A stretch of DNA of 64,000 nucleotides, taken from Eledone cirrhosa (lineage: Eukaryota). Shown here one piece after another: positions 32,396 through 60,554 of this stretch. The DNA lies in assembly GCA_964016885.1 (NCBI GenBank), contig OZ024741.1, positions 236,840,001 through 236,904,000 on the forward strand. Reading direction: 5' to 3'. The notes below the pieces were generated by a model. The model was given only the letters and a program-made list of their open reading frames with translations, was not told the origin of the DNA and did not search any database. A program made the translations under genes and the position numbers. Position 1 is the stretch's first letter, and every line of letters starts with the position of its first letter.

Positions 32396-32477
32396 TTAAA
32401 ACACCTAGAAGATGCCGCCGTGCCTTGCAGGGATTCTCTGAAGAAGGAACCGAAGCCAGGTTTATGATATATCGCAT

Positions 32478-34560: not shown

Positions 34561-34659
34561 ACATCAAGAAAACATTAGGATGACACAGGACGAAAGCATA
34601 GAGTGTGTGTATGTGTGGATGTATGTATGTGTGGGAGGGTGTATGTGCGGGTATGTGTA

Positions 34660-35265: not shown

Positions 35266-35409
35266 TTCCATGTATGTATGTGTGCTATATATACATATAT
35301 ATGTGTGTGTATGCAGGTATATATATATATATATATATACATATAATTGTTTCTACATCTTCATATATATATATATATATATATAATAATAATAATATAT
35401 ATATATATA

Positions 35410-37270: not shown

Positions 37271-37719
<449 letters not shown>

Positions 37720-38760: not shown

Positions 38761-38889
38761 AAAAAATTGTAAGAAACCTAACCTACATAAAAATAAAGAA
38801 ATCATCATTATTTTATTTTTTTAGTAAAACCCCACTGTCCCCGTCCATTCTATTGTCGGCCCTTGTGGCAAATAAATGAGAGAATTATT

Positions 38890-40495
38890 CACCATAGTAG
38901 TGTCGAACGCCAAACACATCGAGGCGATCGGCACTACACTAAGAGAATACGAAGCGGTGACAGGAGCAATGATCAACCAGGAAAAGTCAGTGGGTCTGCA
39001 GCTCAGCACCTGGAGAGGCAGGTCCATGTCGTCCAACAGCGTCGTCGGGCGCTGGACGGACGGACCGGTTAAATTGCTAGGGGTCTGGTTCGGTCCGGAC
39101 CTCCAGACGGACAAAAACTGGGACGAGGTGACGAACAGGGTGGCTTCTCTCACCCAGAAATGGGCGGAGAGGAAGCTATCCCTGAAAGGTCGAGCGGAGG
39201 TGGCTAACGCGTACATCGCGTCTGTCATCTGCTACCGCCTGACCGTCGTACCTTGTCCTAAGCCTCGCCTGACTGCGCTGGAGCGTTTGCTCTTTCGCTT
39301 TTTGTGGAAGGGACGCGCTCCGATGGGCAAGCGGTCCATCTGCTGTCAACACCCGCTACGTGGAGGGCTGGGCATGCCGTGGCTGATGATGCGCAGACAC
39401 GCGCTCAGGCTACGACATCTCCACCTCTTCTTCGACGGTGATCAGGTGTGGTCGCGTCTTTCCCCAGCTCGTCTCCTTGACGGAGCTGCAGTCCTGGGTC
39501 AAGCGAAGACCGAGAGGGAGCGCTTGGAGACTGGAATGTCTTCAGGCGCTCACAGCCCTCGACCAATCGGGCAATGTGATCGGTGGAAACTCCACCTTGG
39601 CGTTCTATAGAGGATTAGTGGAGGGGAAGAGCGACGACGTACTTGGGGAAACTCTAGGCGTCGACGAAAATCAACTAGCCAATCTCTTCGGAAGAACTTT
39701 CGGGCCGGGGCCTATGGACAACTTCCAGAAATCCCTGGCCTGGCAGTGCTACCGAGGAGCTTTGCCAGTTCGGGATAAACTCTACAGGTATGGAGGTGCC
39801 GTCAGCCGGGAATGTCCGAGATGCGCGCAGGGCGACGAAACCGTCCTGCACGCACTCGTCCAGTGTCCGAGCATTGCTGACTTGTGGGTTTATGTCGAAC
39901 ACCTGCTGTCGCGTGTAGGACGGATCCAGCTATCAGCTGAGTCCATCGTGAGGATTGCCCCGCCCTCCTTCTTTAGCCGGGAAGGGCAGAGAGTTTTTAT
40001 CTGTCTGGTGGCCATGGCGAAAGAGATAGTATGGTGGACACGTTTGAAAGAGCTGAAGACGAGCACTTACCTCTTCGGTGATGTCCTGATTAACTTTTTC
40101 AAATTTCATTTGAAAAAGAAAATCAGGGTAGAGAGGGAAGTGCTCTCTTCCCAGCATTTTGTTGAAAGATGGGTGAGAGAGGCAAGAATGGCCCGAGTGA
40201 ATGGGCCTACTCTGAGTATGTGTCTGTAAATTAAAGGTGGAAAACTGTGAGAGGGTACTTGCCCTGGTGGTCAGGGTCACTGTGGGTTTTTAATGGGCTT
40301 TCTCCACGAACGTCCCTCAGAAGTCTCCCCCCTATTGGGGAATTTTTCATCGTTATTTTTTTTGTTACATCCTCTGTTTTTGTTTTTTACACGCAGAAAT
40401 GCCCATTTGTACCGTCCTGTATTGTCCTGCACTGTCCTTAATGTCTACTTTATGTAAACCCTTGTGGTTAATAAAGAAAGCATTATTATTATTAT
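38890..40495 (+). mobile_element. Tx1/L1 LINE family A, 5'-truncated just after the YADD motif, with 3' UTR and (ATT)n tail
   Basis: ORFs 38876-39610 and 39438-40229 (INQEKS, LLGVWF, LSLKGR, FLWKG, CPRC..ETVLHALVQC) joined by one frameshift. Ends AATAAAGAAAGC(ATT)n. Confidence 0.96.
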
Positions 40496-40559
40496 AAACA
40501 ACTGAAAAGAACAAACCTTTGCGGAGCTCACGATAATACGATTTACTACGTAGGTCGCC

Positions 40560-40596
<37 letters not shown>

Positions 40597-40658
40597 TTTT
40601 CTTTATTAACCACAAGGGTTTACATAAAGTAGACATTAAGGACAGTACAGGACAATGC
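40496..40658 (-). mobile_element. Inverted Tx1 tail-to-head junction fragment (3' UTR end - (ATT)n - 5' end)
   Basis: Reverse complement equals the last ~63 nt of the element, then (ATT)n, then the first ~64 nt (GGCGACCTACG...). Confidence 0.92.
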
Positions 40659-40696
40659 ACTGGGTAATTGCTGGCCTTGTGCCTAAAGTAGAAACA

Positions 40697-40732
<36 letters not shown>

Positions 40733-40932
40733 GGCGACCTACGTAGTAAATCGTATTATCGTGAGCTCCGCAAAGGTTTGTTATTTTCAGTTGTTTAAAA
40801 TTGCCATTTTTTGAAAATTTTTATTGTTAACTGTATATAAGTGCACATACATTGTTTTCTGAAAAGGACGCTCAAAATTTAAACTTTTATAATTATCAAA
40901 AAAAAAAAAAAAAAAAATTTCTTTGAATAATC

Positions 40933-42856
40933 ATGGCCGACTCACAGCTGAACCCAGTAGCTGAGAGCCTTCCTCACAAACTAACACCTCACACCGACAC
41001 CACCATTATAAATATTACTACGTTTGCCAACACTAAAAATATAAGCAGTAGCAATATTTTAAATTTGTCTCAGGCAGACATTCATTTCCCGCCATTACCA
41101 ATGACTGCAGGTGTTGAAGCCGCCACCCCCACCACCACCACAGCGACAACAGAAACAAAAGAAAAAATAAATTATCTCGTGATATCGAAACGAATTCAGC
41201 CAAAATGAACTCTTCCACACCGAACACCACTGACGCCACCACCACCACAACTGAAACTAAAATTAACAATAACAAAAATAACTATAACAACAACAGCAAC
41301 AATGAGAATAAGAAAACCCTGCTTTTGCCAGAGTAGCAAAAAAGTGCGAAGCATTCCAGGTAACTCAGGAGGAATTAGAAGAAGCCAAAAAAATGGTAAA
41401 GAAAGATGGGTACAGGGTCAGCTCCCCCCCACACACACACACACACACCTAATAAAATGGAGCATCGGCGCCTATGCACCGTGTCTTATCGGACGATTAA
41501 CATAAAATCGCGCCGAGTGGAACGGGCATTCGAGTCCCAAATCCAAAAAGCTTTGGGACATGTGTGGGCAAAAAAAACCCACATCAGACGTGGGTAGAAA
41601 TATGGAACGGTGGACGTGTTCTTTGAAACACCACAGGAGGCCAGAGAACACTCCATGGCCCCATTAAGAAGTGACGAATTCACACTCGTCCCAAGCTATT
41701 GTGGGCAGAGACTCGTGAAGATCAGGGTGACCCACGTTCCACCGGCCATCGAAATTCCCTGGCTAATGGCTGCCGTCCTCGCCGGCATCGAAGCCAACAC
41801 CAAGATAATTGAAATAGCGAAAGAAAAGCAGGAGAACTGGTCCGGATCTGGGATGGAGCTCCTGGTCCAAGCGGACCAAAAAAGCATTGAGGAGATCCCA
41901 GAGGTAATAGACCTCACTGACAGCAGCCACCTCACCGTAATCGTCGAGGGCAGAAGGCCTAGGTGTGGCGTTTGTGGTGAAGGAACCCACCTAAGGGCTT
42001 TCTGCCCTCAGGCTAAAACGTTGAGGCCACCTCTCTTACCCACCCCAGTGACTCAACCATCAACACCACCAGCAGCAGAAATGGCAGCAACAACTGTAGT
42101 AGCAACAACAGAAGCAACTGTAACAGCAACAACCCCAGCAACAGTAGCAAAACCAACACCACCACCACCCAACGCGCCAGAACTAGCACCAGCGCCTACA
42201 CCATCCACCACGCCACAACCAAAACCAACGCCTGTGGAGGATTTTCCACTCCCCGGCCTATCACAACTGGAGACAGATTGTGACGACGAGGAGTGGGAAA
42301 CGGTATCAGAAAAAAAGAAAAAAAGAAAAAGAAACCAAAAAAGAAAAAATCCCCTTCTTCCCCCGCCAAAAACAAAATACAGAGGGAAACAAATAAACTA
42401 TCAAACAAAAAAGTTAGGACAGCTATGCTACCATCCACACCAGCATCACCAACCCCATCACCACAAACACCAACACCACCATCACCAACACCACAAAAGT
42501 CACCAAAAAGCGAAACAGAAACAAACCCACAACAAACGTAAACAAAACAAAATAACCAAAACGATACACAATACACAGCAATAAATTTGAACAACAATCA
42601 ATTATTACACTACATCCAACACAACACCAGCATCACAGAAAAATACTACACAACAACCCAAAAGTTCACACCACCTCCACACATACAAATCACTCGCATC
42701 ACACAGAAAACTTACACGACACTAAAACAAAAATTCCCCAAAGACATCGGAGACTTCCGACAAGCACCTCCAGGAGGATTTATAAGGACATCCTTCCGGA
42801 GGAGGCCAGAAGCAGTGAAAAGGATGGAGAAACCATCCTTCCTCTACGAGAAGTAA
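40933..42856 (+). pseudogene. Tx1 ORF1 (gag-like), frameshifted in homopolymer and CA runs
   Basis: Zinc knuckle CGVCGEGTHLRAFC (CX2CX4HX4C), Pro/Thr-rich linker and EEWETVSEKKKK motif. Split across ORFs starting at 40933, 41610, 42293 and 42587. Confidence 0.85.
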
Positions 42857-42895
42857 GGTAAGTGGTCTTTCCCATCTTTTCCACTCCATTTCAAC

Positions 42896-44853
42896 ATGAC
42901 CTTACTCAGAATAGGCAGCATAAATGCGCGTGGCTGGGGGTCGTCATGGAAGCAGGGCCACCTGCTCAACGACCTCAGGTCACTAAACATAGATGTAGTG
43001 GCCATCAGCGAGACCAGAATCTCCGAAGCACGGGCCTTCGCACCGATCTTCGGCGGCTACGATGTGTACGCATCTCCCAGCCGTCCTGGATCGGGAGGAG
43101 GAGTTGCTGTGCTTTTTCGGAGAGGTTTGGATCTCGCCATACGGGCCATCTTCCTGGACCCAAAGGGTAAGTTGGTGGTGCTGGACGTGACCAGCGGAGA
43201 CGGGAAAGCTTTCAGGCTAGTGGCCGTCTATGCCCCGACAGGAGCTGGGCGGCCTAATATCTTCCGGCGTCTGGAGACCTTTCTTGGAACGTCCCGCTCT
43301 TTAGTGTTAGTGGGCGACTGGAACGGGATCTTAGATGCACGCTGGAACTGTGTGGCATTAGCGGATAGGGGAGGAGGGTGCAAGAGCCTCACCAACCTGC
43401 TCAGGCGTTTTGAACTGTCTGACAGGTACCGATTGGATTTCCCGAATGTGCCAATGTGGACTTGGACAAATCGCATAGGGTCATCCAGATCATATCTAAA
43501 TAGAGTATTTTGTAGGGAAATAGATATGTCTAGCATAGGCTGTCCACAATTCAAGATAGTCAGCTACACGGACCACAAATTCGTGATCTGTGTGCTTGAC
43601 TTAGATAGGCTTCATAGACGAGGATCCGGCTACTGGAAGCTAAACGGGTCCTTACCAGCGCGCAAGGCCTACAGAGACCGGATTAGCGAACTAGTTAAGC
43701 AGGCGTTGACGGGGGCCATCGTCAACAACAAGTGGTGGTTTGCTCTGAAAAGAGCGATTAGAATAGAGTCCATTAGGTTTAGTAAGGCTTTAGCAATAGA
43801 GAAAAATAGAGCAGAGGGAGAACTAGTTAGAAAATTAGACGAGGCGCTTAGCAAAGGCATCGCGACCGACGTACTTGCGGCGAAATTGGCCCTTGACCAA
43901 TTCTTCAATGCAAAGCACGAAGGCTGCGTTGTCAGAGCTAGGGTGCGTGCTCTCAGACACGAAGGGACGAAAGCCGTTCAATGGGCCCGAGTGGCGGAGG
44001 CGCGTCGTGGCAACAAGGCCACGATCCGGTCTTTGGTGGACCACGACGGGCGTATGCTACTCGATCCCGGGAAAATGTGAAGCTTTTCAGCGACACTTCG
44101 CACAGCTGTTCGGGGGCAGCGGCGGACCGGATCGAGGGATGGACTTCAGTGTCTACCTCGACGGACTGCCGCTCACAGCCCTCGACCAATCGAGCAATGT
44201 GATCGGTGGAAACTCCACCTTGGCGTTCTATAGAGAATTAGTGGAGGGGAAGAGCGACGACGTACTTGGGGAAACTCTAGGCGTCGACGAAAATCAACTA
44301 GCCAATCTCTTCGGAAGAACTTTCGAGCCGGGGCCTATGGACAACTTCCAGAAATCCCTGGCCTGGCAGTGCTACCGAGGAGCTTTGCCAGTTCGGGATA
44401 AACTCTACAGGCATGGAGGTGCTGTCAGCCGGGAATGTCCGAGATGCGCGCAGGGCGACGAAACCGTCCTGCACGCACTCGTCCAGTGTCCGAGCATTGC
44501 TGACTTGTGGGTTTATGTCGAACACCTGCTGTCGCGTGTAAGACGGATCCAGCTATCAGCTGAGTCCATCGTGAGGATTCCCCCCCCCCCTCTTCCTTTA
44601 GCCGGGAAGGGCAGGCAGTTTTTATCTGTCTGGTGGCCATGGCGAAAGAGATAGTATGGTGGACACGTTTGAAAGGGCTGAAGACGAGAATTTACCTCTT
44701 CGGTGATGTCCTGATTAATTTTTTCAAATTTCATTTGAAAAAGAAAATCAGGGTAGAGAGGGAAGTGCTCTCTTCCCAGCATTTTGTTGAAAGATGAGTA
44801 AGAGAGGCAAGAATGGCCCGAGTGAATGGGCCTACTCTGAGTATGTGTCTGTA
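42896..44853 (+). pseudogene. Tx1 ORF2 remnant: APE endonuclease fused to C-terminal zinc-finger region, RT deleted
   Basis: SINARG, SETR, GGGVAVL, VYAP, GDWN, YLNR and TDH, then a frameshift near 44078, junction DGLP|LTALDQ at about 44171, and a further frameshift in poly-C at 44580. Confidence 0.92.
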
Positions 44854-45335
44854 AATTAAAAGTGGAAAACTGGGAGAGGGCACTTGCCCTGGTGGTCAGG
44901 GTCACAGTGGGTTTTTAATGGGCTTTCTCCACGAATGTCCCTCGGAAGTCTCCCCCCTATTGGGGAATTTTTTCATTGTTCTATTATTACATCCTCTGTT
45001 TTTTGTTTTTTTACACGCAGAAATGCCCTTTTGTACCGTCCTGTATTGTCCTGAATGTCTACTTTGTGTAAACCCTTGTGGTTAATAAAGAAAGCATTAT
45101 TATTATTATTATTATTATTATTTTCATTATTATTTAAATAATTATTTCTTTATTGGCCACAAGGGCTTAATGATTATGGATAATAATTAATAAATGATAA
45201 TACAAGAATAAGAAAAACGAGTCAACTTAAACGTTAGATATTTTCTCGTAGTTAGTCATTGAATGGGATAGTTGGGTGAATGCATATACAGAGAAAGAAA
45301 GAAGGATATATCAGCAAATAGATATGTAGATAGAA

Positions 45336-45336
<1 letters not shown>

Positions 45337-45386
<50 letters not shown>

Positions 45387-45397
45387 TAGATAGATAA

Positions 45398-45458
<61 letters not shown>

Positions 45459-45465
45459 GAGAGAG
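45337..45465. repeat. (GACA)n(GATA)n microsatellite
   Basis: Read directly. Confidence 0.97.
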
Positions 45466-45929
45466 ATTAAATAGAGAGATGGAATAGATTACTATGATGA
45501 CAAATAGATAATTAGACAGATACGTAGTTTTAAGTTGGCAATACGATATTTTATAGGCGAATGGAAATAATTATATATTTGTTTGAAGGTGGAACATAAA
45601 AATAAACAAATATATTTCGTTATACTTTGACTCATCATCATTAACACCATTATAACCACCACTACTATCATCATCATCCCCATCATTATTAACATCAATA
45701 TAATCACCGCCGCCGCCATCACCACCATCACCATCATAATCATGACGTTAGCTCTCCCCTCTAGCTCAAGTCCATTTTCAACGAAATATGCTGATATGAG
45801 GCTACTTTATCTTGATACAAAGTCTAGTAAAATGTTTTAATAATATAACCCGAAGAATTGTGTGTATTATATTTATGTGTGTGCATACACACACACACAC
45901 ACATATCATACATATACACCCACTTAATA

Positions 45930-46405
45930 CTTGTAAGGCCCCTGTTCAGCCCAAATAAAATACATCTATGATAAAAGACATTCCATCCATAATCATCCCG
46001 TCTTTCTTCCAGTTTATTTAATGCCTCCTTCCATTTTTAGATAGTAAGATGAGATTTAAGGGATATTTAGCTACCGTGTCTAGCAAGTCGAACGGCTGTG
46101 TGAGGCTCCTCCCTTGTTGGCTCCTATACATGTGAGTAGAACGAGAACGTAAACATTTATATGAAATGAGTAATAGCAATTAACTCGTTTGAAAATAACC
46201 ATTGTAAATATTGTTGTGACGGAGTTGTTATTTGGCCCCATGTCAGCTCTAATCTAGTAGGCATATGATCAAAGCTTTTCCTGTCGTGACTCTCCCGCCT
46301 TTTCAGAAATAGTTCATTTCAGACTACAATATGTCCTTCCCTTTTTTAAGGCGGTGGGGGTATGTTTAGAAAAGGATTTTGTAGCTATTTCTAACAAGTT
46401 GGACG
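45930..46405 (+). mobile_element. Two copies of a ~190-bp dispersed repeat (other copies near 48500-48690, 48700-48860, 50020-50210 and on the minus strand at 58140-58270)
   Basis: Shared motifs TATGATCAAAG..TTCCAG.C.TGACCATCCC and GTGTGATTT..G..GA..TT.GC.G.TATTTCTAGCA.GT. Confidence 0.7.
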
Positions 46406-46859
46406 AGAAAAAGTCGTTTGCGATTTCTTAAAAGAAAATTCATACCCATCTATTTGATTTCAAAAAGGAATGAATGAAAAAGAAAAAGAAAGAAACAATT
46501 AAACCTCGGTCGTGCTCGAACTCAGCACGATGAATTTACTTTCCACTTGGCTGCACTACTAAATTGTGATGAGTCAATTGCCAAAGGATAGATGGGGAGG
46601 GCATATAAACAAAGGGGAGGTAAACCATGCCGTCTAAATATTTAGCACAGTTTTCACAGATTTCGTTTAAACAAATAAAAAGCAGTGTTGACTCGGAAAT
46701 GAAAACAAGAAGGCAACATTAATAATAATTGAGTTTTAGAATGTGTGATTAATTTAGAGTATGGTAGCAATTAAAAAAAAACATGTTAACGAGAAATTAC
46801 GATTTATATCAACATACAATTAAGTAAAAGGCATTAAAAAAAACAGTGCTTTTATCAAA

Positions 46860-46993
46860 GTAGGGACTAGTGACTTTACGACACCGCCTTCATTGTCCCG
46901 CGGTCGAAAAAAAATTCTGTGCCTGAAGGTTTGTTTCCAAAAACATTCTCAATTGGTTCCGATTTGCTGGGCTCACACATTGAAAGGTAAGTG
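46860..46993 (+). other. Candidate first exon ending at a consensus splice donor
   Basis: CpG-containing unique stretch ending GAAAG|GTAAGT at 46987/46988. No other support. Confidence 0.25.
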
Positions 46994-47689
46994 TTATGCA
47001 TATTGTAGGATGTAGAAAAGTGCAGCAATAATTGTGCAAGGGACATCTAGATATTCTACCAACATTACTAGAATGTTTTTTCTTTTTTTATTTTTGGTAT
47101 ATGTGTGATATGGAGGGGATACTTGACCCCCCTCCAAATCTGGATTGTCTTATTTGTATTTTGAGATTACTATTTTCTTCAATGTTCTCCATTTTTTACT
47201 GTAGTTGCCATCCCCTCCTCCCCCCTTTTTAGATATTACCCTCATATAACACTCCCTCCCCCTTTCCTTCATACATTCATACATACACACCCACACTCCT
47301 CTCATGCATTATCGCACATTACATACATATATGTATATATATATATATGTGTATGTATATATATACACACAGACTCATTTACATACACACCCTCACTTTT
47401 ACACGCACACACACATACCATACTCAGTACCCCCTCTCCCCCTGTATTATCTACTCTACCAAGTCTCATTTCATGTCTTGCTGTGTCGTCTTATTAAATC
47501 TTAAGTCTTCTACGCATATATATATCCTCCTGTTGTATATATTTCAATATTTAGATTATCTTTATATCCGAATATAGATTTTTACTTCAAAACATTGGAA
47601 AACCCTCTTCATGATACACACAAACACACACACGCTCTCTCTCTATATATATATATAGAGAGAGAGAGAGCGAGAGGGGGGGGGGGAGA

Positions 47690-47850
47690 TACGGCCCACA
47701 AATTTTTAACGAAATTAAATCAATCGGCCTAGAACTGAACTCGGGGAAAGTAGGACTCACTTTTATACACGTATTTAAAATAAACTAGTAAACATGGGCA
47801 TAGGAAAATGCATGAACCTCACGGAATCACTGTCGCCCCCCCCCCCTTAA
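47690..47850 (-). mobile_element. Possible DNA-transposon end (TTAA followed by G-rich terminus, Kolobok-like)
   Basis: Minus strand begins TTAAGGGGGGGGGGGCGACAGTG. No partner terminus found. Confidence 0.25.
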
Positions 47851-49059
47851 TAACTATGTTATTAATCATCGTATCTATTGTTTGTATTGTTATAGGGAGG
47901 TGGTGGTAAGGAAGGTAGCTATCTCTTTTGAAGTGAGGAGAGGGAGGGTAGCTAACATAGAAGGTCGGCGGAGATGGGGAGAAAGAGACGGAGGAGGCGG
48001 GTTGTCGTTTCAGAAGATGAAGCAAGGGGAGAGGGGGAAGGAATATCAAACAAGATGATTGTGGTGGTGGTGGTTGGAGAAGTTAACTATCAAATATGAA
48101 GTAGGGAAGTGGGAGGTGGGAAGGAAAAAGGAATTATCTCACTGGAAGTTGGTGGTAGTGGTGGGAGCTATATCACTTTAGAAGGTGGTAGTGAGGGAGG
48201 TGGGAAGTGGTAGCTTAACTGATCGTAGTGTTTGTGCCGTAAGTCAATGCACCTTACTCCACTCCACCCAACCCTCACTCACGTTTGAGTGCCTCTTCTC
48301 CGTAAGGCTGAAAACTATCAAGATTCGAACTGTTATTATAGTTTTCTCTTCCCCTGTTATGGAGATCGATAATACCAGTTATGTACTGAGGTCGATCAGT
48401 CATCGGTAATTTTGTACTAATGTCAGGATTCTTTTTCTTTCTCAGCAAGACGGTTGAGACGATGGAGTGTCTGATTTGTAGTAATGTCTAAGTGTTGATG
48501 AGCCTCTTTAGTTCAACACTGATCCAACAAAAAGACATATGATCAAAAGCCTTCCAGTCGTTACCATCCAGTCATTTTTTTTTTAATACTTTGAACTACT
48601 TTGTTCAAAATAATATTTATTTAATACGGTAAGATGTGATTTCAACATTTAGCTGCTATTTCTAGCATTTTGAGCGACTGCATTCCCTTGTAGTGTTTGC
48701 GTGTTGTTGTTTAACCCCGGGACGGCCTTGATTGAGCATCCAGCTGTCACACCCCGTTTTCTTTTTGCTTTTTGTTTTTTTATTATCCAATGTGTTCTTT
48801 TTTTTTTAAGATGTTAGGGTTTGGTTTGGGACAGAGCATGTAGAAGCTCCCTCATATAGCGTCAGTGTCGCTCGCCATTGATCCTTAAACTAAACACTAA
48901 TTATTTACTGGGGGAATGTTGGATGTCGATACAAAAGAAGTGAACTTCAAACCTAGTGGGATAAAAGTACTAAAAGACAAAAAGTACGTGGTTCCACTGC
49001 TTTCATCACTATCTACCACCGCCTTTGTAACAACACTTAAGATAATTTATAGTATTGCC

Positions 49060-49610
49060 ACTTGTTTTTGCCTGGCCTCACTGCTTGAATGGTACTTTAT
49101 TTTATCGACCCCGGAAGGCTGAAAAGCAACTTTGACCTCAAAAGGTAAAGTGCACTAACTCAAACGTTTCTTCCAATCCAACAACAACGATAATCATAAT
49201 TGTTTCTACTTTTTGCTTAAGCCCAGAAATTTGAAAGGAAGGGGGAAATCGATTATATCGAAGGATGAAAGGCAAAGCTAACATCGGCGGAATTTGAACT
49301 TAGAACGTAAAGGGTCATAACTATATGCTACAAAGCATATTGTCCGGTGCCCTACCGTTAATGCCAATCCACTGTCAAAAATAATTCTTTCTAACATTGG
49401 CACAGTGACCAGCAATTTTTTAGGCAAGAGAAAATCGATTATATCGACCCCGAAAAGAAGAAAGACAAAGTTGACCTCGGAGGAACTTGGTCTTAGAATT
49501 TAAAGGGCCGTTAACTAAAATGCCGCAAAGCATTTTATCCGACGTCTACCGATAGTGCCAATCCGCTATCAATAGGGGGAAGGGGGAACAGTTGATTATA
49601 TCGGCCCTTA
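49060..49610 (-). mobile_element. Cluster of three to four tandem tRNA-derived SINE copies (GCCTTTCATCCTTTCGGGGTCGATAA family)
   Basis: Repeated TTATCGACCCC..AAGG.TGAAAGGCAAAG...GGAATTTGAACT motifs. Confidence 0.8.
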
Positions 49611-49621
49611 TCCGACGAAGT

Positions 49622-49820
49622 GAAGGCGTGTGGCTGAGTGGTTAGAGAATTGGATTCACAATCTTGAGGTTGTGAGTTCAATTCCTGGACCGGGCGATGC
49701 GTTGTGCAAGACACTTTATTTCACGTTGTTCCTTCTACCTGGAGTTGCGACCGATAGATAGTATTAGCAACTGGAAAGACCAATGGAAATATTGTTTCCT
49801 CGGTCCGATTTGACGAAAGT
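49622..49820 (+). mobile_element. CORE-type tRNA SINE
   Basis: A box TGGCTGAGTGG, B box GAGTTCAATTCC, GCAAGACACTTTATTTCACGTTG. Confidence 0.85.
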
Positions 49821-50449
49821 CGATCGATCCTTTTTTATCCGACGAAAAAAAAAAAAAAAATTAAGACGTTTATGGTGGTGGTGGTGATTTGCTTACACCA
49901 ACAACAGTCGATTATTTTTCTATTAGTTCATCGGAGGGTCAGCGCCTATGACCCCTAAAGCCCCCACCCCGTCGCTTATCTTCAGTACCTTTGCTGAAGT
50001 TTCACACAAGACCTCGTGTTCTTTAGCCCTGACCGAGCAGACCAATAATCAGAATCATTCCAACCATGACCATCCCACATTATTTCCTATGTGCACTGAG
50101 CTCAAGGCCACTATCCAACGTGTCCCTTTTTCATAATGCAGGGTGTGTGATTTGGAGGAAGTTTGGCCGTTATTTCTTGCAGGTCTAGCGACCACGTATA
50201 AATTCCTGTATCTGTATTGAATCCTCGTTCTTTATCCTATCCATAAAAGTATGAAAAGGAAAAGGTGAACCTGGCAATATTTAAAGATTTAACTTGAATT
50301 TTTTTCCTTGTAACTTTTTTGGGGGAAGGGGGCTATTATTATAGAACATCCCTATCGATTTCAGTGGGAAATGATTATTTTTGCTCTCTTTTTGTGCTAT
50401 CAACTAAACTTTACTCCGAATATGCTTCAAAAGACTTTTTCTCGGGGGG

Positions 50450-50710
50450 GGGGGGGGTCAAGGAGGGAGACAAGTCCGAGGGTCCGCCTTCCCTCTCCGT
50501 TTTCCGAGGGAAAATGTCCTATGCAGCATGTTCGAAGGTAAGATTAGTTACTAACACGAAAAAAACCGAGAGGGGGAATTGTAAAGAAAACTCCGGGGGA
50601 AGTGGGGGAGTTAGAGTCCCCCTCCCCCTCTCCGTTTTCCAATTGGGAAAATCATTTACAGTATATTCGGAGTTAAGTTTAGTTGATGATACACGAAAAA
50701 CAGGACAAGT
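50450..50710. repeat. Degenerate ~135-bp direct duplication
   Basis: CCCTCTCCGTTTTCC...GGGAAAAT...TAAG.TTAGTT...ACACGAAAAA occurs twice. Confidence 0.7.
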
Positions 50711-50894
50711 AATTATTTCCCAAAGAAATCGATGGGAGTGTTCTATAAATTTACCCTCTTTTTAGGTCTTATTGTTTATTTAATTTATTTTTGTTAAAAT
50801 GGACTTTCAATTTCTATGAACATAAGAGATTCGGAATCTGCAAAAAAAAATTTTTTTTCTTTTCCTTTTAATAAAAATTTATTATAATTTCGAA

Positions 50895-51115
50895 AGGCTG
50901 TAAATTGGCAGTATATTTAGAGCGTCGAACAAATGCTTTGCAATATTTGTTACAGTTCTTTACGTTCTGAGTTCGATTTCAACTGAGGTCAACTTTGCCT
51001 TTTATCCTTTTGAGGACGATAAAATAAAATACCAGTAAAGTACTGAGGTCGATATAATCGACTTTCCACTGGTCCAAAATTGCAAGCCTTTCGCCTAAAT
51101 TTGAAACAATTCTTA
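50895..51115 (+). mobile_element. tRNA-derived SINE (GCCTTT.ATCCTTT family)
   Basis: GAGTTCGATTTC..GAGGTCAACTTTGCCTTTTATCCTTTTGAGGACGATAAAATAAAATACCAG. Confidence 0.8.
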
Positions 51116-51237
51116 TTCTAAAAGCACAATAGATGGACACTGGTTCCAAGAAATATTCACGAATTGTTAGTATGAAAGGATATAATCCAAAAATTTCATA
51201 TCTTCATTATGGAAATGATGAAACTTAAAAAAAACAA

Positions 51238-51458
51238 GACGCTGGCCAGGCAAAAACGAAACTGCTTTGGAAAAAAAAAAGTGCGCTAGTCAAGTTAATA
51301 GTGATACATTTCGTATATGAAACTATATTCGATAAATAGGAATCGAATATAGTTTCATTATCAAATATCTGCTGTTTCAATATGAAATGTATCACTATTA
51401 ACTTGACTAGCGCACTTTTTTTTTCCAAAGCAGTTTCGTTTTTGCTTGGCCAGCGTCC
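51238..51458. mobile_element. MITE or fold-back element with ~85-bp inverted arms
   Basis: GACGCTGGCCA...GATACATTTC.TAT.TGAAAC pairs with GTTTCAATATGAAATGTATC...TGGCCAGCGTC. Confidence 0.88.
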
Positions 51459-51599
51459 TAATTGTAATGTGTGCCAAAGAGAAAAATGATGGCGATATTT
51501 GGTTTTTAATAAGGGTTTTTTTTTTTTTTTTATTAATTATTTTTCTTCATCAATGAAGTTATTTATTCGATTGTGTCTCTGATAACTTTCCATACTTAC

Positions 51600-51652
51600 A
51601 AATCATGAAAGTCAGTTTTGGAGGAATTAGTGTTCGTAGAGTTTTACCATAC
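51600..51652 (-). other. Candidate 53-nt internal exon
   Basis: Minus strand has acceptor TTTCTGTTTGTTTTAAAACAG and donor GTAAGTAT. One open frame, YGKTLRTLIPPKLTFMI, which I do not recognise. Confidence 0.4.
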
Positions 51653-51837
51653 CTGTTTTAAAACAAACAGAAACGGAATAAACACGTTTATTAACAAACA
51701 TGAGATTTATCATATCTAAATTTATATCTTGGTAAGTCTTGTGAAAGAGGAAATTTCTAGATTCAAATTATAAACGTTTTATTAGTATATTTTTTACCGA
51801 AGTGATAAACACTCTTTTTACTTGGATAGATACATAA

Positions 51838-52084
51838 TCATCATCATCATTTAATGTCCATTTTTCGAAGCTAGCATGGGTTAGACGAGTTGTTCCGTTG
51901 TGGGACAAGTCAAATCAGGTGACCATGTCTTGCTCATACAGAACTGGTTCTGGCTTGGTTTCTACAACTGGATTCCCTTCCTAACGCCAACCACATTTAC
52001 TGGGTGCTTTTTGCTGACACCTACATAACCACTTTACAGTGTGGGCTGGGTGCTTTTTGCTGTGACACCTACACAACCACTTTA
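51838..52084 (-). mobile_element. Non-autonomous element with RTE-type 3' end and (GAT)n tail (further copies near 53155-53290, 53641-53860, 55715-55845, 56790-57140, 60120-60240, 60415-60535, 61850-62005)
   Basis: Shared CTGGATGCCCTTCCTAA.GCCAACCAC and CATCATCATTTAA.GTCCA...GCTAGCATGGGTTAGA. The latter matches the RTE 3' end at 53075-53118. Confidence 0.8.
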
Positions 52085-52164
52085 TGTATATATATATATA
52101 TAAAGTGGTTGTGTAGGTGTCACAGCAAAAAGCACCCAGCCCACACTGTAAAGTGGTCATGTAG
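52021..52164. repeat. Near-perfect palindrome (arms about 60 bp) centred on (TA)n
   Basis: ACCACTTTACAGTGTGGGCTGGGTGCTTTTTGCTGTGACACCTACACAACCACTTTA is mirrored exactly after the TA run. Confidence 0.95.
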
Positions 52165-52403
52165 ATGTATATATATATATAAATATAAATTCAGCGAGAG
52201 CCGCATTTCGGCAGGTAGAAAAAGCGAAACGTAACGCAAATTCCGAGTCATGCTGGCAAGCGCTCCATGGGCTAAAAAAGACCAGAGCAATAAACATAGG
52301 TTATAAAGGCCATACAAACTGAGAAGGCGGTCAAGAAGCCATTCACCACCTAAGCCAAAAAACAAGTCAAGCTAAACAGGTCAGACAAAATAAATGACAT
52401 ATT

Positions 52404-52589
52404 CATATATATATATATATACATATATATATGTGTAACAAACAAATATATATATATATATATATTCAAATATATATATATATATATATATATATACAAA
52501 TATATATATACAAATATATATATACAAATATATATATACACAAATATATATATACACAAATATATATATATATACAACTATATATATAT

Positions 52590-52631
<42 letters not shown>
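52404..52631. repeat. (TA)n / CAAATATATA compound microsatellite
   Basis: Read directly. Confidence 0.95.
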
Positions 52632-52633
<2 letters not shown>

Positions 52634-52757
52634 GATAACAAGTTATCGTTAGAGGTTGTGAGTACTTGAGATAAAGCCCCTTATTGTACAGCCAACCATG
52701 TTACTCTTCATTCTTTCACTATATATATATATATATATACATACATATATATATACA

Positions 52758-53118
52758 AATGAAGCAAGCATGCTCCGTTGGATGTGTAATGTCAATGTGC
52801 GTGAATGACCAAGCATAGACGAGTTGAGACAGAAACTGGGTATAAGAGGGATAAGTTGTGGTGTGCAGGAGAGAAGACTGAGATGGTATGGACATGACAT
52901 GTGATGCGCATGGAGAATGACCGCTGGGTAAAGAAGTGCAAGAAATCCCAGTAGAGGAAGACCACGAAAACATGGCCGGAAGTGGTGAGAGCAGACCTCA
53001 GATTGCTGAAACTCACTGAGGAGATGACGAAGGACTGTGACAAGTGGAGAGAGACTGTGCTGAATAGGACCCGTCCCACCCTTGCAAGCAGCGAAAGGCG
53101 GACGTAAAATGATGATGA
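52758..53118 (+). mobile_element. RTE LINE 3' end with (GAT)n tail
   Basis: NEASMLRWMC, ELRQKLGI, ERRLRWYGH, GRPRKTW.EVVRADL. Confidence 0.9.
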
Positions 53119-53511
53119 TATATATATGTAAAGATACATCTATATATATATAATCATCATCATCTTTACGTCAACTCTTCTGTGTCGGCATTGGGTTGAA
53201 CTGGATTTTTGAAGCAATGTTTTGTAGTTAAATGCCCTTTCTGAGACCAACATTTTTAGTCACTTCTTACGATATACAGGGGTACAGTATATATATATAT
53301 GACACACAATTATGGAGTGTGTCAATGCTGGATGTGTATCAACTATATTTTTTGTTATGGACTTTCATACATAATTATTTGTAACTATCTCATCATGTCT
53401 TACCTGTTGTAGTTGCATAACAGGTGTTACTGAAATGCACATAATAATAAATATAACTAATTATGTAATTACACAAACCAGTCTTAATGTTTATTTGTAT
53501 ATGTGTATAAC

Positions 53512-55715
53512 TTCAGAGCTACAACCATTAATGTAAGCACAATGAGAGGAAGATCAGGAGAGATTGTAGAGATGTTAGATCAAAAGAGAGTAGATGTGTG
53601 TTGCGTATAAGAGACTAGGTGGAGAGGAGGATCAGCTTGACTCATCATCATCATCATCATTTAACGTCCATCTTCCTCGCTTGCATGGGTAGGATGGGCT
53701 GTCCCTTTGTGAGGGATCAGGTCGGGGGACTGTGAATTGCTCACAGAGAACTGATTTTGGCTTGGTTTCTATGGCTGGATGCCCTTCCTAATGTCAACCA
53801 CATTTACAGTGTGTGCTGGGTGCTTTTTGCTGTGTCGCCTACACAACCACTTTACAGCATGGACTTGGTGCTTGTTGATAAAGAACGATGCTACAAATTT
53901 TTCTGCATGGGAAATAATTACGGGCTAAATGGAGTAAGTATTTTGTTAGCAGAAAAATAGGTGAATAATGTTATCGCAGTCAACAGGGTAAATGACAGAA
54001 TCATTAAACTGAGGATAGTCCAAGATAAAACAACTGTAACAATTATATCTACAATATGCACCATATTCGGGACTTCCAAACATACTAAAAGACAACTTTC
54101 TTCATTCCTAATACAGACTACTTCTCTAATAGGTGACAAGGCACTATTAATCATAGCAAATGACTTTAATGGACATGTTGGGTAACACAGTGATGGCTTC
54201 TATGGGACACTCGGTGGGTACAGGTTTGGTGTGAGAAATCAGGAGGTATCCTTGAATTCTGTGACATAAATGAACTGATGATCTGTAACACTGACTTCAA
54301 AAAACCTGACAACCCCTTGATCACCTATAGATCAGGTGAGCACACCAGCCAAAAAGATTTTATCCTCACCAGAAAGCAAGATAGAACAATGGTCGTAACA
54401 CAAAGGCCCTCCGGGGTGAGGAATGTACCTCCCAGCATAACCTAGTAGTCAGTGACTTGTTAATTAGAGCTAGACGAACTTGGAGACAAGGGCCAACCTG
54501 GATGAGGAGAAGGATATGGAAATTGAAGGAGCCTGTAACAAATTTAAGGATGCCTTACTTGACGCTTTTGATAATAAAGAAGAAATAGTGACAAACAATA
54601 TAGAGGAGCAGTGGGAGTTCTTGAGAGACAATCTACTGAAGGCCACAAATGAGGTATATGGATAGAGCAGAGGTCCAGGGAGTAGGAGAGAGACTTGATG
54701 GTGGAATAGTAGGGTGGATGAAATAATTGAAGCCAAGAAACTGTCATAGAAGGAAGGGCAAAATTGAGGTAGCAGAGAGCTTTACCAAGTGGCCAGGTAA
54801 GAGATGAGGTGACAAGTACACTTTGCAAAGAGAAAAGCAGAAAGTAAAAAATATTTATGCATGTTATGCAATGTGATGACCAAAGACGTGAGGTGCTCAG
54901 ACTCGTAAGGCGAAAATAGTGATGTTGTGGGAGAGAAGTGTGTTTGAAATGACAATGGTGCATTTTCCCTCACTGAAACCGAAAAGAAGGTCTGGAAGCA
55001 TGACCTGAAATCAAAAGGTCTTAAAGTAAACTTGGCAAAGATCAAAGTTCTAATAAGTAGCAAGGAAAACAATGCCCTGATCCCTTCTGGGAAATGACCC
55101 TGCTCAGTGTGTAGGAAAGGGGTGGGTAGAAATTCCATCCTCTGTCCCAAATGCAAGAGATGTAGTGGGATCTCAGGTAGATTAGCTAAGAACATAGGTT
55201 TTATTTGTGGCCATTGCACAGGAACAAAAAGTAACAAACACTCACAGGAAACAAGTGCTATGAAATTCTTGGAAGATTCTGTAGAAGCTGTTAACAGCTG
55301 TTACCTCGGTGACCAAATTAGCAGTGGAGGTGTGTGTGCTAAAAGTACAGTAACCAGAGGGAGAACGGGATGGAAAAAGTTTAGGGAGCTACTACCATTG
55401 CTAGCTACAAAAGGCTTTTCCCTTAAAATGTCGAACAGATTGTATGATGCGTCTATAGAAACAGCTATGTTACATGGTAGTGAGACCTGGGCACTCTGTG
55501 CAGAGAAACTGCAAAGATTGGAAAGAAATAAAGCTGGTGTGCTTCAATGGATGTGTAATAGTAGTATAAATGAACTGAGAGAGAAACTGGGTATAAGAGG
55601 GATCAGATGCAGTGTGCAGGAAAGGAGATTGCGTTGGTATGGACATGTAATGCATATGAAGGGTGACAGCTGTATAAAAAGGTGCAGAGTGCTCAAAGTT
55701 GATGGAATCAATGGA
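53512..55715 (+). mobile_element. Degenerate RTE LINE: endonuclease, RT core deleted, PHD-like insert, C-terminus; interrupted by a SINE-like insert at 53641-53860
   Basis: TINVSTM, ETRWRGG, NGVSILL, DFNGHVG, then junction KVWKH|DLKSKGLKVN at about 55001, then CSVC..CPKC..C..CGHC, YLGD, HGSETW, RLRWYGHV. Confidence 0.9.
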
Positions 55716-55853
55716 GTAGGGCATCCAGCTGTAGAAACCATACCGAAATCAGTTCTGTATGAGCAAGAAAAAGTCACCTGATCTAGCTTCTCTCACAACA
55801 TGGAAAAATGGATGTTAAACGGTGATGATAAGGATGATGATGAATATATATAT

Positions 55854-55957
55854 AATTAGAAAAAGAAGCTGTTGCCATATTTTTTTACTAAATAAATTTT
55901 AGCCTGATAGTGGGGTTTAGAACCCTCAAAAATACGGCGAAGCTTCTATTTCTAATT
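55854..55957. mobile_element. Small MITE-like inverted repeat (arms about 30 bp)
   Basis: AATTAGAAAAAGAAGCTGTTGCCATATTTT versus AAAATACGGCGAAGCTTCTATTTCTAATT. Confidence 0.6.
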
Positions 55958-56024
55958 TCAAACTCACTCGCTGTTTCAAAAACATACTTACTGTCATATA
56001 TATATACACACACGCACATATACA

Positions 56025-56177
56025 CAATGTGCTTCTGCACAGTTTATGTCTACCAATTTTCACTCACACGGTACATGTCAACCTGAGACCAGTAGTAGAC
56101 ATTTGTGCAAGGAATGGAATATATAAATACATGGTTGTAAAACAAACTTGTTAATCATAGGGCAATGCCTGCGCCTA
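56025..56177 (-). mobile_element. Degenerate SINE copy
   Basis: GCTTC.GCACAGTTT..GTCTACCAA.TTTCACTCACA..G...AGTAG.AGACA.TTG..CAAGG pattern recalled from octopus SINEs. Confidence 0.5.
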
Positions 56178-56235
56178 CACTCCTGTTTCTAAATGTGTCA
56201 ATTTGGGAAAAAATATCTTTTACCATAGCTTCAGG

Positions 56236-56658
56236 TTAACCCTTTAGCATTCACATTACTCTATATATACTATTGTATTTTCATGGTAAAAGCTTTACCT
56301 CACATAATTATCTCACATAATATCAAATCTATGAGGGCGGAGGATTGACAGTATCGGTAGAGGGTTGGACGCCATGCTTTGACGCATAGAGTTACGGTCC
56401 TTGCCATTCTGAATTCAAATCCCGCCGAGGTTAACTTTGCCTTTCATCCTTTCGGGGTCGATAAAATAAAGTACCAGTAATACACTGGATAATTGCTGGC
56501 CTTGTGCCAAATGTAGAAACAATAATATCGAATCTATGAGATTTTGAAAGTATTTATTTTGAGAACAATACCTTAACATTAGTTTGAGCGACCAATTACA
56601 GCCAGTTTCAACAGAAAGAGGTAGAGAATTCTGGCCGGTTTGAACATTAAAAGGTTAA
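56236..56658 (+). mobile_element. piggyBac-like MITE (TTAA / CCCTTT termini) carrying a SINE insertion; second partial copy inverted at about 57140-57347
   Basis: TTAACCCTTTAGCATTCA...TGAACATTAAAAGGTTAA. The internal sequence matches the reverse complement of 57140-57347. Confidence 0.8.
56336..56521 (+). mobile_element. Full-length tRNA-derived SINE with 19-bp target-site duplication
   Basis: ATAATATC(A/G)AATCTATGAG at 56317-56335 and 56522-56540. B box GAATTCAAATCC, central GCCTTTCATCCTTTCGGGGTCGATAA. Confidence 0.92.
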
Positions 56659-57689
56659 CCCAAGCTTTGAGCAGACCCAGGCAAGATGTGAAATCTAGGT
56701 ACACTAAGTATTTTAGTAATCAGTGCTAAATACATATGATTTATGGATAAGTTACAAGTGTATATATGTACATGTAGTGTACATGATGACATCATCACCA
56801 TTTAAGATCTATTTTCCATGCTTGCATGAGTTAAAGGGCTATCACATTCTGAGGCTAGATAGATCAGATAACTAAGTCTTGTTCATACGCCCTGGTTTGG
56901 GCTTTTTCTACATCTAGATGCTTTTCCTAACACTAACCACTTTATAGTGTGTACTCAGAGTATGTTTCATAGCACCAGCACTAGCAACTTACAGAGTGGA
57001 CTGGGTGCTTTTTATTGTGACATCAATATGACCACCTTACAGAGTAGACTGGGTGATTTTTGTCATGGCACCTACACTAACACTTTACAGGATTGACTGG
57101 GTACATTTTGTTGTGGCACCAGTACAACCACCTTACAGGGTAGTTCTTTAAACCTGCCATATCTGGCCAGAATTCTCTCAACTTTTTCTGTTCAAACCGT
57201 CTGTAACCGTCTGCTCATACTTATGTTAAGCTATTGTTCTCAAAATAAATAATATCAAAATCTCATAGATTCGATATTATGTGAAATAAAGTGTTTACTG
57301 TGAAGATATGATAGTAAATATAGAGTAATGTAAATGCTAAAGGGTTATGGTAACGGAACAGAATAAAAGATTTTGAACTTAAGGGGAGTAGGCTCTCCAC
57401 AATCACAAGTTCATTCCAACTGACAATCCTGACCCCCCACCATCCCACCCCTCTGTTCTAACTTACTTATGTGTGAAATTGGGCAGATGGAAACTAGAAC
57501 GTCTATTGGCTGCACTATTTGTAATTTAAATGACCAACCCAGTCATACATGCAGTTTTCCTGCTGATTCTACACAATGATTACACACAAAGGACGGCGCC
57601 ATCCTATCCTGATGTGGAGAAACGAAAGGTAGCTTCAGCAACAGATTATTTTGTTCTGTTACTAGAGCTTTCGATACCGTTAATACAGT

Positions 57690-57838
57690 AAAAAGGGATG
57701 ATAAGTCCTCAGGCTACTGAAGCAATGTGAAATAAAGCATCTTGCTCAAAGACACATGCCACCTGGTGTGGGCCGGAATCAAACTCATGACCTTACAATC
57801 GTGAAGCAAACAACCTAACCACTAAGCCACATGCCTCC
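57690..57838 (-). mobile_element. CORE-type tRNA SINE
   Basis: Minus strand TGGCTTAGTGG, GAGTTTGATTCC, CTTTGAGCAAGATGCTTTATTTCAC. Confidence 0.8.
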
Positions 57839-59091
57839 ATTACATTAAGAGTAGAAACGTCTGTTGGAGATCCATTGATCAAATAACTGGAACAGTCATT
57901 GTTGAAACTGGCGGACATGCATTTACTAGATAGTTCCATTGATCAAACAGTTGAAATACTCATTATTGAAACTGATGGAGATCCATTTATATTTTTCTTT
58001 ATGGGTGTGGCAATTGAAGATATATCTCTCTGACATGTGTGGGTGTGGAGAGAGAGAGAGAGAGAGACAGACAGCTTACTTTTCTCTCCACTTAATATAA
58101 GTCAAGTGGTTCTTGAACTATGAAGAGGCCTATATATGGTCAATCAACCTGTTAGAAATAGCAACCAAACCTACTTAAAATCACACTCTTCCATCTTAAA
58201 AAAATGATACATTAAATAATATAGTCTTGGATATAGTATGTCCCAATAAAAGACATGATGGTCATGGCTAGTATGTTTTTGATTGTAGGCGAGCTCAATC
58301 AAGAAACTAAAGATAAAATAAGCAACAAGAACAGCACTAAGATTTTGTCTCTGAAAACAAGACAGGATGATCATGACTGGATTGTTTTTAATAATGTCTG
58401 CTGAATCAGAGCTGATATGGAACTAAGCAACACTGCTGATGGATAATGTATTCCTAGATACACTTTCTGAATAGAATGCAAGATGATCATGGGAAGAATG
58501 CTAGATGAGGGGTGAACTACATTAACATTAGCATTAGATAATGTAAGCTTAAGATACACTGTCAGCTGAATGGGTACTGACCTGAGGTTGTACAACAGGT
58601 GAAACTGGTGACATTTGACCAACCATTTACCCTACAATCTCCAATTCTACTGTTATTTCCTATGATTCAGAATATGTCAATGATATGCCATATATCTTAT
58701 TTAGTTCCTTTTGTTCCTTATGAAACATTGGGCATCTTTTGTCATTTCAGTAGCTACTTTGATTAATTGAAATAAGGCTGTTAACCTCATATTTCGTCCC
58801 TCCCCCTCCTCCTCCTTTCTCAATTTAAATATTAATCTACGATAAGAAAAAGGCAACGAGAAAAAAAACAAAAACGACTTATGTATATCAGTTACGTTAT
58901 ATACATTCAAATCTTAGTGTTATAGCTACATAACACAAATATTTTTATACAGAAATTTCTTTTAAATATTAATCTATGATAAAATAAAGCAACAAAAAAA
59001 AAAGAAAACAACTTATCTTATGTCCCAGTTTAACATGATATAATACAACACAACATACATGAACTAATTCTCTATAATAAAAATAATAATA

Positions 59092-59282
59092 ATTGTTTCT
59101 ATTTTTGGCACAAGGCCAGCAATTATTCCAGTGTATTACTGGTATTTTATTTTATCGACCCCATGAGGATGAAAGGTAAAGTTAACCTCAGTGGGATTTG
59201 AACTCAGATCATAAAGGGCCGTAACTATGCGTCAAAGCATGGCGTCCGACTCTCTACCAATATTGCCAATCCACTGCCCTTA
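59092..59282 (-). mobile_element. Full-length SINE, same subfamily as 56336-56521
   Basis: Reverse complement aligns over its whole length with 56336-56521. Confidence 0.9.
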
Positions 59283-60060: not shown

Positions 60061-60554
60061 GACAAAGACCCCTATTTAAAAAATAAGATTGAGGGGGAAA
60101 ATAACTCCTTAGGAATCTGCCGCTGACTTTTCCATGCTGGCATGGATTGGATGGGACTTTTTGAAGCAATGTTTTACACCCAGATACCTTTCCTGACACC
60201 AATCCTTTTAGTTGCCCCTTGCGACATGCAGGGATACAGTGTGACTATTCTAAACTGGATACACATATATATATGAGAGTGGTAGGGGTGCTGAGAACTT
60301 TTCAGCCAACTAAAATGAGAGTATATGCATATGTATGTATGTGTGTGTATGTGTAAATGTATTTATATATAAATCTATATATGTGTATGTATGTATATAT
60401 ATATACATATATATAGCAAAATCAGTTCTGTATGAGCAAGACATAATCACCTGACCTGGCATTGCCTACAACAGGACAACTCATCTAACCCATGCTAGCA
60501 TGGAAAAATGGACATTAAATGGTGATGATGATGTATATATATATGTATGTAGTT

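Follow-up and report, generated by a model that had tools for sequence, protein, structure and literature searches.

We analyzed a 64,000-nt window of the Eledone cirrhosa genome (assembly GCA_964016885.1, contig OZ024741.1, positions 236,840,001–236,904,000, forward strand), in which copies of a Tx1-type long interspersed nuclear element (LINE) and of a short interspersed nuclear element (SINE) end in similar predicted hairpins shortly upstream of (ATT)n runs. The elements lie in a nested block at 38824–45172 and in two full-length SINE copies downstream of it. The original prediction was that the SINE is mobilized by the Tx1/L1-type LINE through the shared 3′ hairpin. The elements are listed below with window positions; ORF1 and ORF2 are the LINE open reading frames (ORFs).

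38824..38883, plus strand: 5′-truncated Tx1 3′ end of the GGCC/GGCC-stem subfamily, this copy decayed to GGCC/GGCA; hairpin GGCC-CTTGT-GGCA at 38858–38870.
38894..40481, plus strand: 5′-truncated Tx1 copy of the AACC/GGTT subfamily, with the C-terminal part of ORF2 including a zinc knuckle; hairpin AACC-CTTGT-GGTT at 40457–40469.
40495..40653, minus strand: inverted piece found by self-comparison, comprising a Tx1 3′ end, (ATT)12 and ~65 nt from the start of a Tx1 5′ end; AACC/GGTT hairpin at 40620–40608.
40654..40696, plus strand: 5′-truncated SINE 3′ end; hairpin TGGC-CTTGT-GCCT at 40672–40684, followed by (ATT)12 at 40697–40732.
40733..45095, plus strand: Tx1 with a 5′ end, a broken ORF1 and the endonuclease part of ORF2 (42896–44080); 3′ hairpin AACC-CTTGT-GGTT at 45071–45083.
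45143..45172, minus strand: Tx1 3′ end of ~30 nt, AGCC/GGCC-stem subfamily, tail-to-tail with the preceding Tx1; hairpin AGCC-CTTGT-GGCC at 45167–45155.
56336..56521, plus strand: full-length SINE with A-box/B-box-like motifs, a conserved body and a short tail; hairpin TGGC-CTTGT-GCCA at 56497–56509.
59094..59281, minus strand: full-length SINE with (ATT)n on both sides; hairpin TGGC-CTTGT-GCCA at 59118–59106.

All seven hairpins of the original prediction were present, each within one base of its given place; the eighth, in the inverted piece, had been missed. CTTGT occurs 86 times in the window, 11 times within a Watson-Crick stem of at least three pairs, and eight of these 11 are the element ends listed. 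Two hairpins (38858 and minus-strand 45167) had been ascribed to unknown tails but belong to truncated 3′ ends of sister Tx1 subfamilies. Wider searches used an unbiased sample of 1.19 Mb from the 3.0-Gb genome, made up of 10-kb stretches at 119 evenly spaced positions; loci numbered with L, such as L185, were sampled or inspected, and genome-wide numbers are counts of exact patterns. The first of these end types recurs downstream of a Tx1 ORF2 in L252, as well as in L004 and L057, and the second in L019 and in L003, where it also lies downstream of a Tx1 ORF2.

The block is nested because its elements share a target, every insertion leaving or lengthening an ATT run for the following one to use. 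The copy at 38894–40481 inserted directly behind the ATTATT that trails the tail of its left neighbor; it contains AATAAA, ends 12 nt past the stem, carries a Pfam zf-RVT domain (E = 1.8e-08) and has 40 scored genome matches at 95–100%. The element at 40733–45095 is flanked on both sides by (ATT)n (40697–40732 and 45096–45134) and has a large internal deletion near 44170; its Exo_endo_phos domain (E = 3.3e-13) has LINE-1 ORF2p as the nearest solved structure, and its 5′ end recurs behind (ATT)n in L071, L193, L023, and L027. The inverted piece at 40495–40653 represents the tail-to-head junction of a tandem Tx1 array. It was likely co-inserted with the adjoining SINE fragment, which matches the SINE copies at 56479 and 59137 at 90%, although two separate events are possible; a single co-insertion at 40495–40732 would place Tx1 and SINE RNAs in one complex. 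Several older, rearranged Tx1 copies (70–84% to the young ones), with hairpin ends decayed or missing, lie on the minus strand at 30800–35280. The repeat classes of the window agree with those published for octopuses (PMC13282606, PMC8967140).

The LINE ORF2 comprises an apurinic/apyrimidinic (APE) endonuclease, a reverse transcriptase (RT) and a C-terminal zinc knuckle (Pfam Exo_endo_phos, RVT_1, and zf-RVT); the first 600 kb of the sample held 292 ORFs, and the Pfam scan covered 90 of them. Locus L185 encodes an intact ORF2 of 1152 amino acids behind an upstream ORF region, for which LINE-1 ORF2p is the best solved structure (E = 1e-52). We assign the LINE to the L1/Tx1 clade on sequence grounds. 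ORF2 scored 275 bits against an alligator protein named TX1 and 161 bits against human L1 RT over a similar region; the RT tree was built without an L1 reference, and placement on the Tx1 rather than the L1 branch, suggested by these scores and by target preference, is tentative. Such a preference was seen, with (ATT)n flanking full-length as well as truncated copies on either side and with sister subfamilies on satellite or on (TA)/(TATC); full-length Tx1 5′ ends sit behind (ATT)n at five independent loci. Target preference is common in Tx1 (PMC4494074). The nearest named relative of the LINE protein, 68% identical, is from Argonauta.

A tree of 17 ORF2 ends resolved two clades with 100/100 support. 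Clade 1 targets (ATT)n and has the stems GGCC/GGCC, AGCC/GGCC, and AACC/GGTT; clade 2, with the stem TGCC/GGCA, inserts into (TA)n, (TATC)n, or a 55-bp satellite. Five of the 17 loci were without the strict hairpin pattern and had decayed versions of it instead. L185 (G000:C1:4229002-4237000) and its neighbors at C1:4.229–4.259 Mb form a young subfamily (pairwise divergence 0.019) with a fixed site in the 55-bp satellite and six copies ~6–7 kb apart; among the matches listed, those to this subfamily were concentrated near chromosome ends. ATT-clade Tx1 copies were frequently found antisense in Dong-R4 (TAA)n tails and in the tails of CR1-type LINEs (L007, L132, L140, and L258).

The SINE is ~190 nt long (186–188 nt in the full-length window copies), is flanked by target duplications and carries motifs resembling A and B boxes. 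It appears to be of the tRNA-derived type. ARAGORN and Rfam found no tRNA in the SINE; a missing tRNA call is common for diverged SINE heads. It may be one of the octopus CORE-SINEs OR1 and OR2. Among 93 SINE bodies, 62 had the hairpin, and the other 31 were cut short, decayed or members of a sister family with another tail. An old type of the SINE has ~25 extra nucleotides in its tail, which the youngest subfamily deleted while keeping the hairpin end. The sister family has the same body with a longer, pyrimidine-rich tail and is without the CTTGT hairpin (L062:6144, L116:3711, L117, L072, and L090:1257). Pieces of the SINE and Tx1 3′ ends were also seen fused into short chimeras (L140 minus strand, L057, and L110:6999–7066), one of them joined to another SINE family via a 5-base microhomology, and these are possible template switches.

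The last 25 nt are conserved between the SINE and the LINE, with four SINE and 10 Tx1 ends aligning ungapped over this length. The stem-closing C-G pair, the loop positions C-U-x-G-U, and the following AA are invariant across the 14 ends. In end-anchored comparisons of the four SINE ends with seven Tx1 ends, background p values were 0.0007–0.013 for all 28 pairs, whereas the 32 pairs of SINE ends with eight other LINE ends gave p values of 0.024–0.67. These eight ends came from Dong-R4, three RTE, one I/Nimb-like, two CR1-like, and one unassigned LINE, with clade names that we presumed from domain layout. Other LINE clades were covered in the 1.19-Mb sample and at the 30 top RT loci, and none of the clades sampled fitted the SINE tail as well as Tx1 did. 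A better alignment with another LINE clade would have refuted the original prediction, and this check did not refute it. Spacing from hairpin to end was 12 nt for 81 of the 83 SINE copies and for 64 of the 69 Tx1 ends, the Tx1 pattern permitting 12 or 13 nt only. The SINE end differs from that of the TGCC/GGCA clade by one flipped pair and ~3 spacer bases. Between the two Tx1 clades (16 pairs), identity was 0.83 in the terminal segment, 0.70 at the ORF2 end and 0.55–0.60 in the 3′ untranslated region.

Genome-wide, the LINE form of the hairpin occurs 27,886 times (11 for a reversed-pattern control) and the SINE form 200,690 times (0 for the control); these counts are far above the controls and therefore not due to chance, although the hairpins are not independent events because they are copies of three repeat families. 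CTTGT was the top 5-nt loop ahead of an ATT run in the first 600 kb of the sample (10 cases, all SINE; next, 4). Loop and stem were tallied by hand over the first 100 matches listed for each form. The loop had been described as invariant, but its middle base in the LINE matches was T in 57, A in 19, G in 18, and C in 6; pair 3 was intact in 96 and the outer pair, pair 4, in 81. The middle base varies and the outer pair is frequently broken; therefore, the loop is CUNGU with a free middle base, and the outer pair is dispensable. Three runs were also searched, and their contigs (X1, X5, and X6) held no hairpin variant among the matches listed; X5 and X6 are near-identical sequence at low depth and contribute no cross-species covariation. 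A metagenome scan for the LINE motif gave 3 matches, none beside Tx1 coding sequence, which we took as chance.

Compensatory stem changes were the part of the original prediction that held with a reservation. Pairs 2, 3, and 4 do change on both sides, through two events at pair 4 and one at pair 3 among the LINEs and one at pair 2 between LINE and SINE, that is, only 3–4 independent events. The covariation score over the 14 rows was 0.374 versus 0.131, none of 500 shuffles reached it, and slid controls gave 0.00–0.08, but the rows are related and hand-picked. Paired cells made up 91% of the alignment, and three of the four pairs showed both-side change. In one row, L290, an atypical SINE copy, the spacer resembles that of the LINE, which touches the spacer columns and not the pair counts. 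RNAalifold predicted the inner three pairs, and the hairpin lay within the minimum-energy fold of eight of nine terminal 53-mers.

SINE and LINE also share an insertion site. ATTAT stands directly after 71 of 83 SINE ends and was already present in the target, as it lies in the left flank of 45 of the 83 SINE copies and of 19 of 47 truncated ATT-clade Tx1 copies versus 5.3% at random. The Tx1 flanks were counted by hand, the automatic flank filter being noisy, and ~11 of the 47 are internal deletions that lower the fraction. A comparison of target preference, as the original prediction had proposed, thus finds both elements inserting at ATTAT. Target duplications of 7–21 bp were found in 50 of 83 SINE copies; 35 had at least 10 bp, with a median of 16 and a mode of 18, and the duplications usually begin at the ATTAT that follows the element end. 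Published duplication lengths are 7–18 bp for the L1 clade and 7–15 bp for RTE (PMC6007223). ATTAT in the left flank and duplications that start there indicate that the ATT/AAT sequence behind the SINE, previously read as a tail, is mainly target; in the window copy at 56336–56521, positions 56522–56540 repeat 56317–56335 as a 19-bp duplication with 1 mismatch. Pairwise divergence was 0.091 for the young SINE (n = 64) and 0.101 for AACC/GGTT Tx1 (n = 28), so the activity periods overlap and the insertion signature is common to both. Poly(A) was not seen after the SINE or Tx1 ends examined, and the pair does not correspond to a relaxed, poly(A)-dependent L1-SINE pair of the Alu/SINEU type.

Other LINEs were compared as candidate partners. 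A young CR1-type LINE (L293–L352; ORF of ~945 amino acids) has at least 8,271 ends, finishing TTTC(ATT)n with a true (ATT)n tail. The 35 CR1-type ends examined comprised 7 open and 28 truncated copies; the truncated copies served as the control, and five of these rows were dropped because their junction had been placed within a repeat internal to the 3′ end. Among the 23 kept, ATTAT stood in the left flank of none, and a single copy showed a duplication of at least 10 bp (Fisher's test versus SINE, p = 4e-7 and 4e-4, respectively); unfiltered, the counts were 5/28 (p = 9e-4) and 6/28 (p = 0.07). Dong-R4 was rejected because its tail, (TAA)n, belongs to the opposite strand and its end gave no alignment. 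RTE was also rejected, as its ends, (GAT)n, (GAA)n, or ATAT, were unaligned save one with p = 0.024 for one of four queries. In one CR1-type subfamily, the 3′ end is duplicated in tandem. A very abundant young RTE-type LINE (L087, L094, L105, and L113) has a (GAT)n tail and encodes a PHD finger immediately behind the RT. This LINE is also represented in the window at 51826–51952 and 60417–60544, and its last 30–40 nt seem to recur in a second short repeat. Elsewhere in the window, a 47-bp satellite fills 1–28832 (~606 copies, 89% matches), and long inverted duplications lie at 37272–37719 (enclosing microsatellites), 51238–51457, and 52017–52168.

Because the SINE shares the 25-nt end and the ATTAT site with ATT-clade Tx1, it is likely to be copied by the ORF2 protein (ORF2p) of that clade. 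It is very probable that Tx1-type LINEs mobilize the SINE, and probable, at one remove, that they do so by way of the hairpin. The original prediction is supported by the matching end, its spacing, ATTAT, the duplications and age, from which we infer recognition of the hairpin. In the mechanism that we propose with a fair degree of confidence, ORF2p of the ATT-targeting subfamilies would copy the SINE and select its RNA by the predicted hairpin. By analogy with target-primed reverse transcription in stringent LINEs, the endonuclease would nick the strand opposite (C)ATTAT, freeing a DNA end to which AUUAU immediately beyond the element would anneal. The hairpin, bound by ORF2p 12 nt upstream, would set the start of copying, and a second nick 7–21 bp away would generate the target duplication. 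The LINE retains AAUAAA, which likely serves 3′ processing of an RNA polymerase II (Pol II) transcript; the SINE, which RNA polymerase III (Pol III) presumably transcribes, would have lost AAUAAA and kept the hairpin and spacing. The SINE end likely came from an ancestral Tx1 by template switching, with one pair later flipped from C-G to G-C. We also lean, somewhat less firmly, toward the view that a CUNGU hairpin placed exactly 12 nt before the priming site, with no poly(A), is a minimal stringent signal that stayed fixed across this animal Tx1 radiation while the endonuclease target shifted between (ATT)n, (TA)n/(TATC)n, and a satellite and that the dominant octopod SINE exploits.

Several observations count against mobilization through the hairpin. 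The outer pair was broken in 19/100 LINE and 45/100 SINE matches, as U-U in those 45; the 3–4 compensatory events fall on related rows; one old SINE type favors another register in folding; and folding z-scores were weak, falling below -2 in two of eight 59-mers. Genome-wide searches for a LINE with the SINE's stem gave 3 and then 5 matches, all of them SINE, and a search for a SINE carrying the LINE's stem gave none. The age-matched AACC/GGTT Tx1 was among the weakest matches to the SINE end (score 8–16). ATT runs were longer behind Tx1 (median 5 units, 30 loci) than behind the SINE (median 2, 83 copies), and Tx1 duplications, 11–21 bp, were readable in few copies; most of their lengths cannot be read because both flanks are pure ATT. 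If the five dropped CR1-type rows are kept, the SINE-CR1 contrast in duplications reaches only p = 0.07. Some of these points would fit a process in which Tx1 copies the SINE through AUUAU-target pairing alone and the hairpin is a relic or serves RNA 3′ processing or stability. The stem has only 3–4 bp with weak folding scores and a free outer pair and middle loop base, the SINE's flipped pair is found in no LINE, and the best-conserved stretch between the Tx1 clades is the AAUAAA-bearing spacer (0.95 versus 0.73 for the hairpin, partly by selection). However, the Pol III SINE, without AAUAAA, has kept the hairpin and the 12-nt spacing through the tail deletion, subfamily stem changes restore pairing at pairs 2, 3, and 4, and in zebrafish L2 the 3′ stem-loop is bound and required (PMC4176376); we consider pairing alone a possible but rather unlikely explanation.

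That another LINE copies the SINE, either the young CR1-type or one that is unsampled or extinct, with the Tx1 likeness secondary, is less probable still. The CR1-type LINE does also finish C(ATT)n, and L2 or CR1 serve those molluscan CORE and V SINEs for which a partner has been identified (PMC4758252, PMC4824008); the survey of other LINEs is a sample, in which a low-copy LINE with the whole SINE tail is possible. Nevertheless, the CR1-type end did not align with the SINE end (p = 0.10–0.37) and differed in ATTAT flank and duplications, 29 of 30 inspected hairpins with a non-SINE-like 5′ neighbor were SINE copies, and a profile search plus inspection by eye placed LINE sequence ahead of none of the 111 SINE-type hairpins in the random sample. 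Chance resemblance of short GC stems beside A/T-rich microsatellites could be suspected from a shared stretch of only ~25 nt, shorter than in most published LINE-SINE cases, and from the lack of similarity further upstream for five of six Tx1 ends; the sixth resembled the old SINE tail (p = 0.006, uncorrected). Background p values near 0.001, with the only higher background scores likely to be SINE copies themselves, and the independent agreement of spacing, target, and age make chance very improbable and have largely refuted it already.

Mobilization of the SINE by Tx1 through the hairpin has partial precedents. The partnership had been called possibly undescribed; we found no paper on a Tx1-octopus SINE pair, although supplements and Repbase may hold relevant Tx1 3′ ends or octopus consensuses, but L1-clade precedents do exist in plants and algae (PMC3472496). 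In the text available of that review of 58 SINE/LINE pairs, "octopus," "OR1," and "OR2" have 0 occurrences, and three SINEs have L1-clade tails, all of plant or alga (PMC3472496). These include maize/sorghum ZmSINE2 and ZmSINE3 with LINE1-1_ZM and Chlamydomonas SINEX-3_CR with L1-1_CR, each an L1-clade LINE and a tRNA SINE with a common short 3′ end (PMC3472496, PMC3747384). The maize pair is particularly similar in having a hairpin with a conserved loop, a variable stem, and compensatory changes (PMC3472496). Those pairs belong to the L1 branch and share ~50–80 nt, whereas the pair described here is animal, of Tx1 type, shares 25 nt, is target-specific, and has no poly(A). Crocodilian SINEU was assigned to Tx1-Mar by target preference and matching ages, as here, and likewise stacks in tandem at the target; SINEU has snRNA heads and poly(A) tails, and the text available reports no LINE with the SINEU-1 3′ end, in contrast to the shared 3′ end and tRNA-like head in Eledone (PMC4494074). 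Kibi, Koshi, and the crocodilian (TTCC)n/(TTTC)n Tx1 elements also insert into microsatellites; no partner SINE is mentioned for them in that text, and their targets differ from those of the Eledone sister subfamilies, which insert into (ATT)n, (TA)n/(TATC)n, and the 55-bp satellite (PMC4494074). ZfL2-1, ZfL2-2, and UnaL2 have a 3′ stem-loop just before a short repeat and provide the model for the mechanism, but they belong to the L2 clade and their binding and requirement were shown experimentally, whereas the hairpin here is predicted from sequence (PMC4176376). OR1 and OR2 are abundant tRNA-derived octopus CORE-SINEs for which the available accounts state no partner LINE (PMC4758252, PMC4824008).

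We regard the pairing as a variant of the known stringent LINE-SINE partnership, rarely described for Tx1 in animals. Site-preferring insertion tools are a further reason for interest in a short cis signal used with endonucleases that differ in target preference. Stringent reading of RNA has been proposed for the ancestral L1 (PMC3472496), and an animal Tx1 with a shared 3′ hairpin would offer a test of that hypothesis in animals, in which the signal is 25 nt long and variants of stem and loop occur naturally. If the reading is true, stringent RNA recognition would extend beyond the L1 elements of plants and algae into the Tx1 branch in animals, and the likely driver of octopod SINE expansion, in a group where SINEs make up ~12% of one octopus genome (PMC13282606), would be named.

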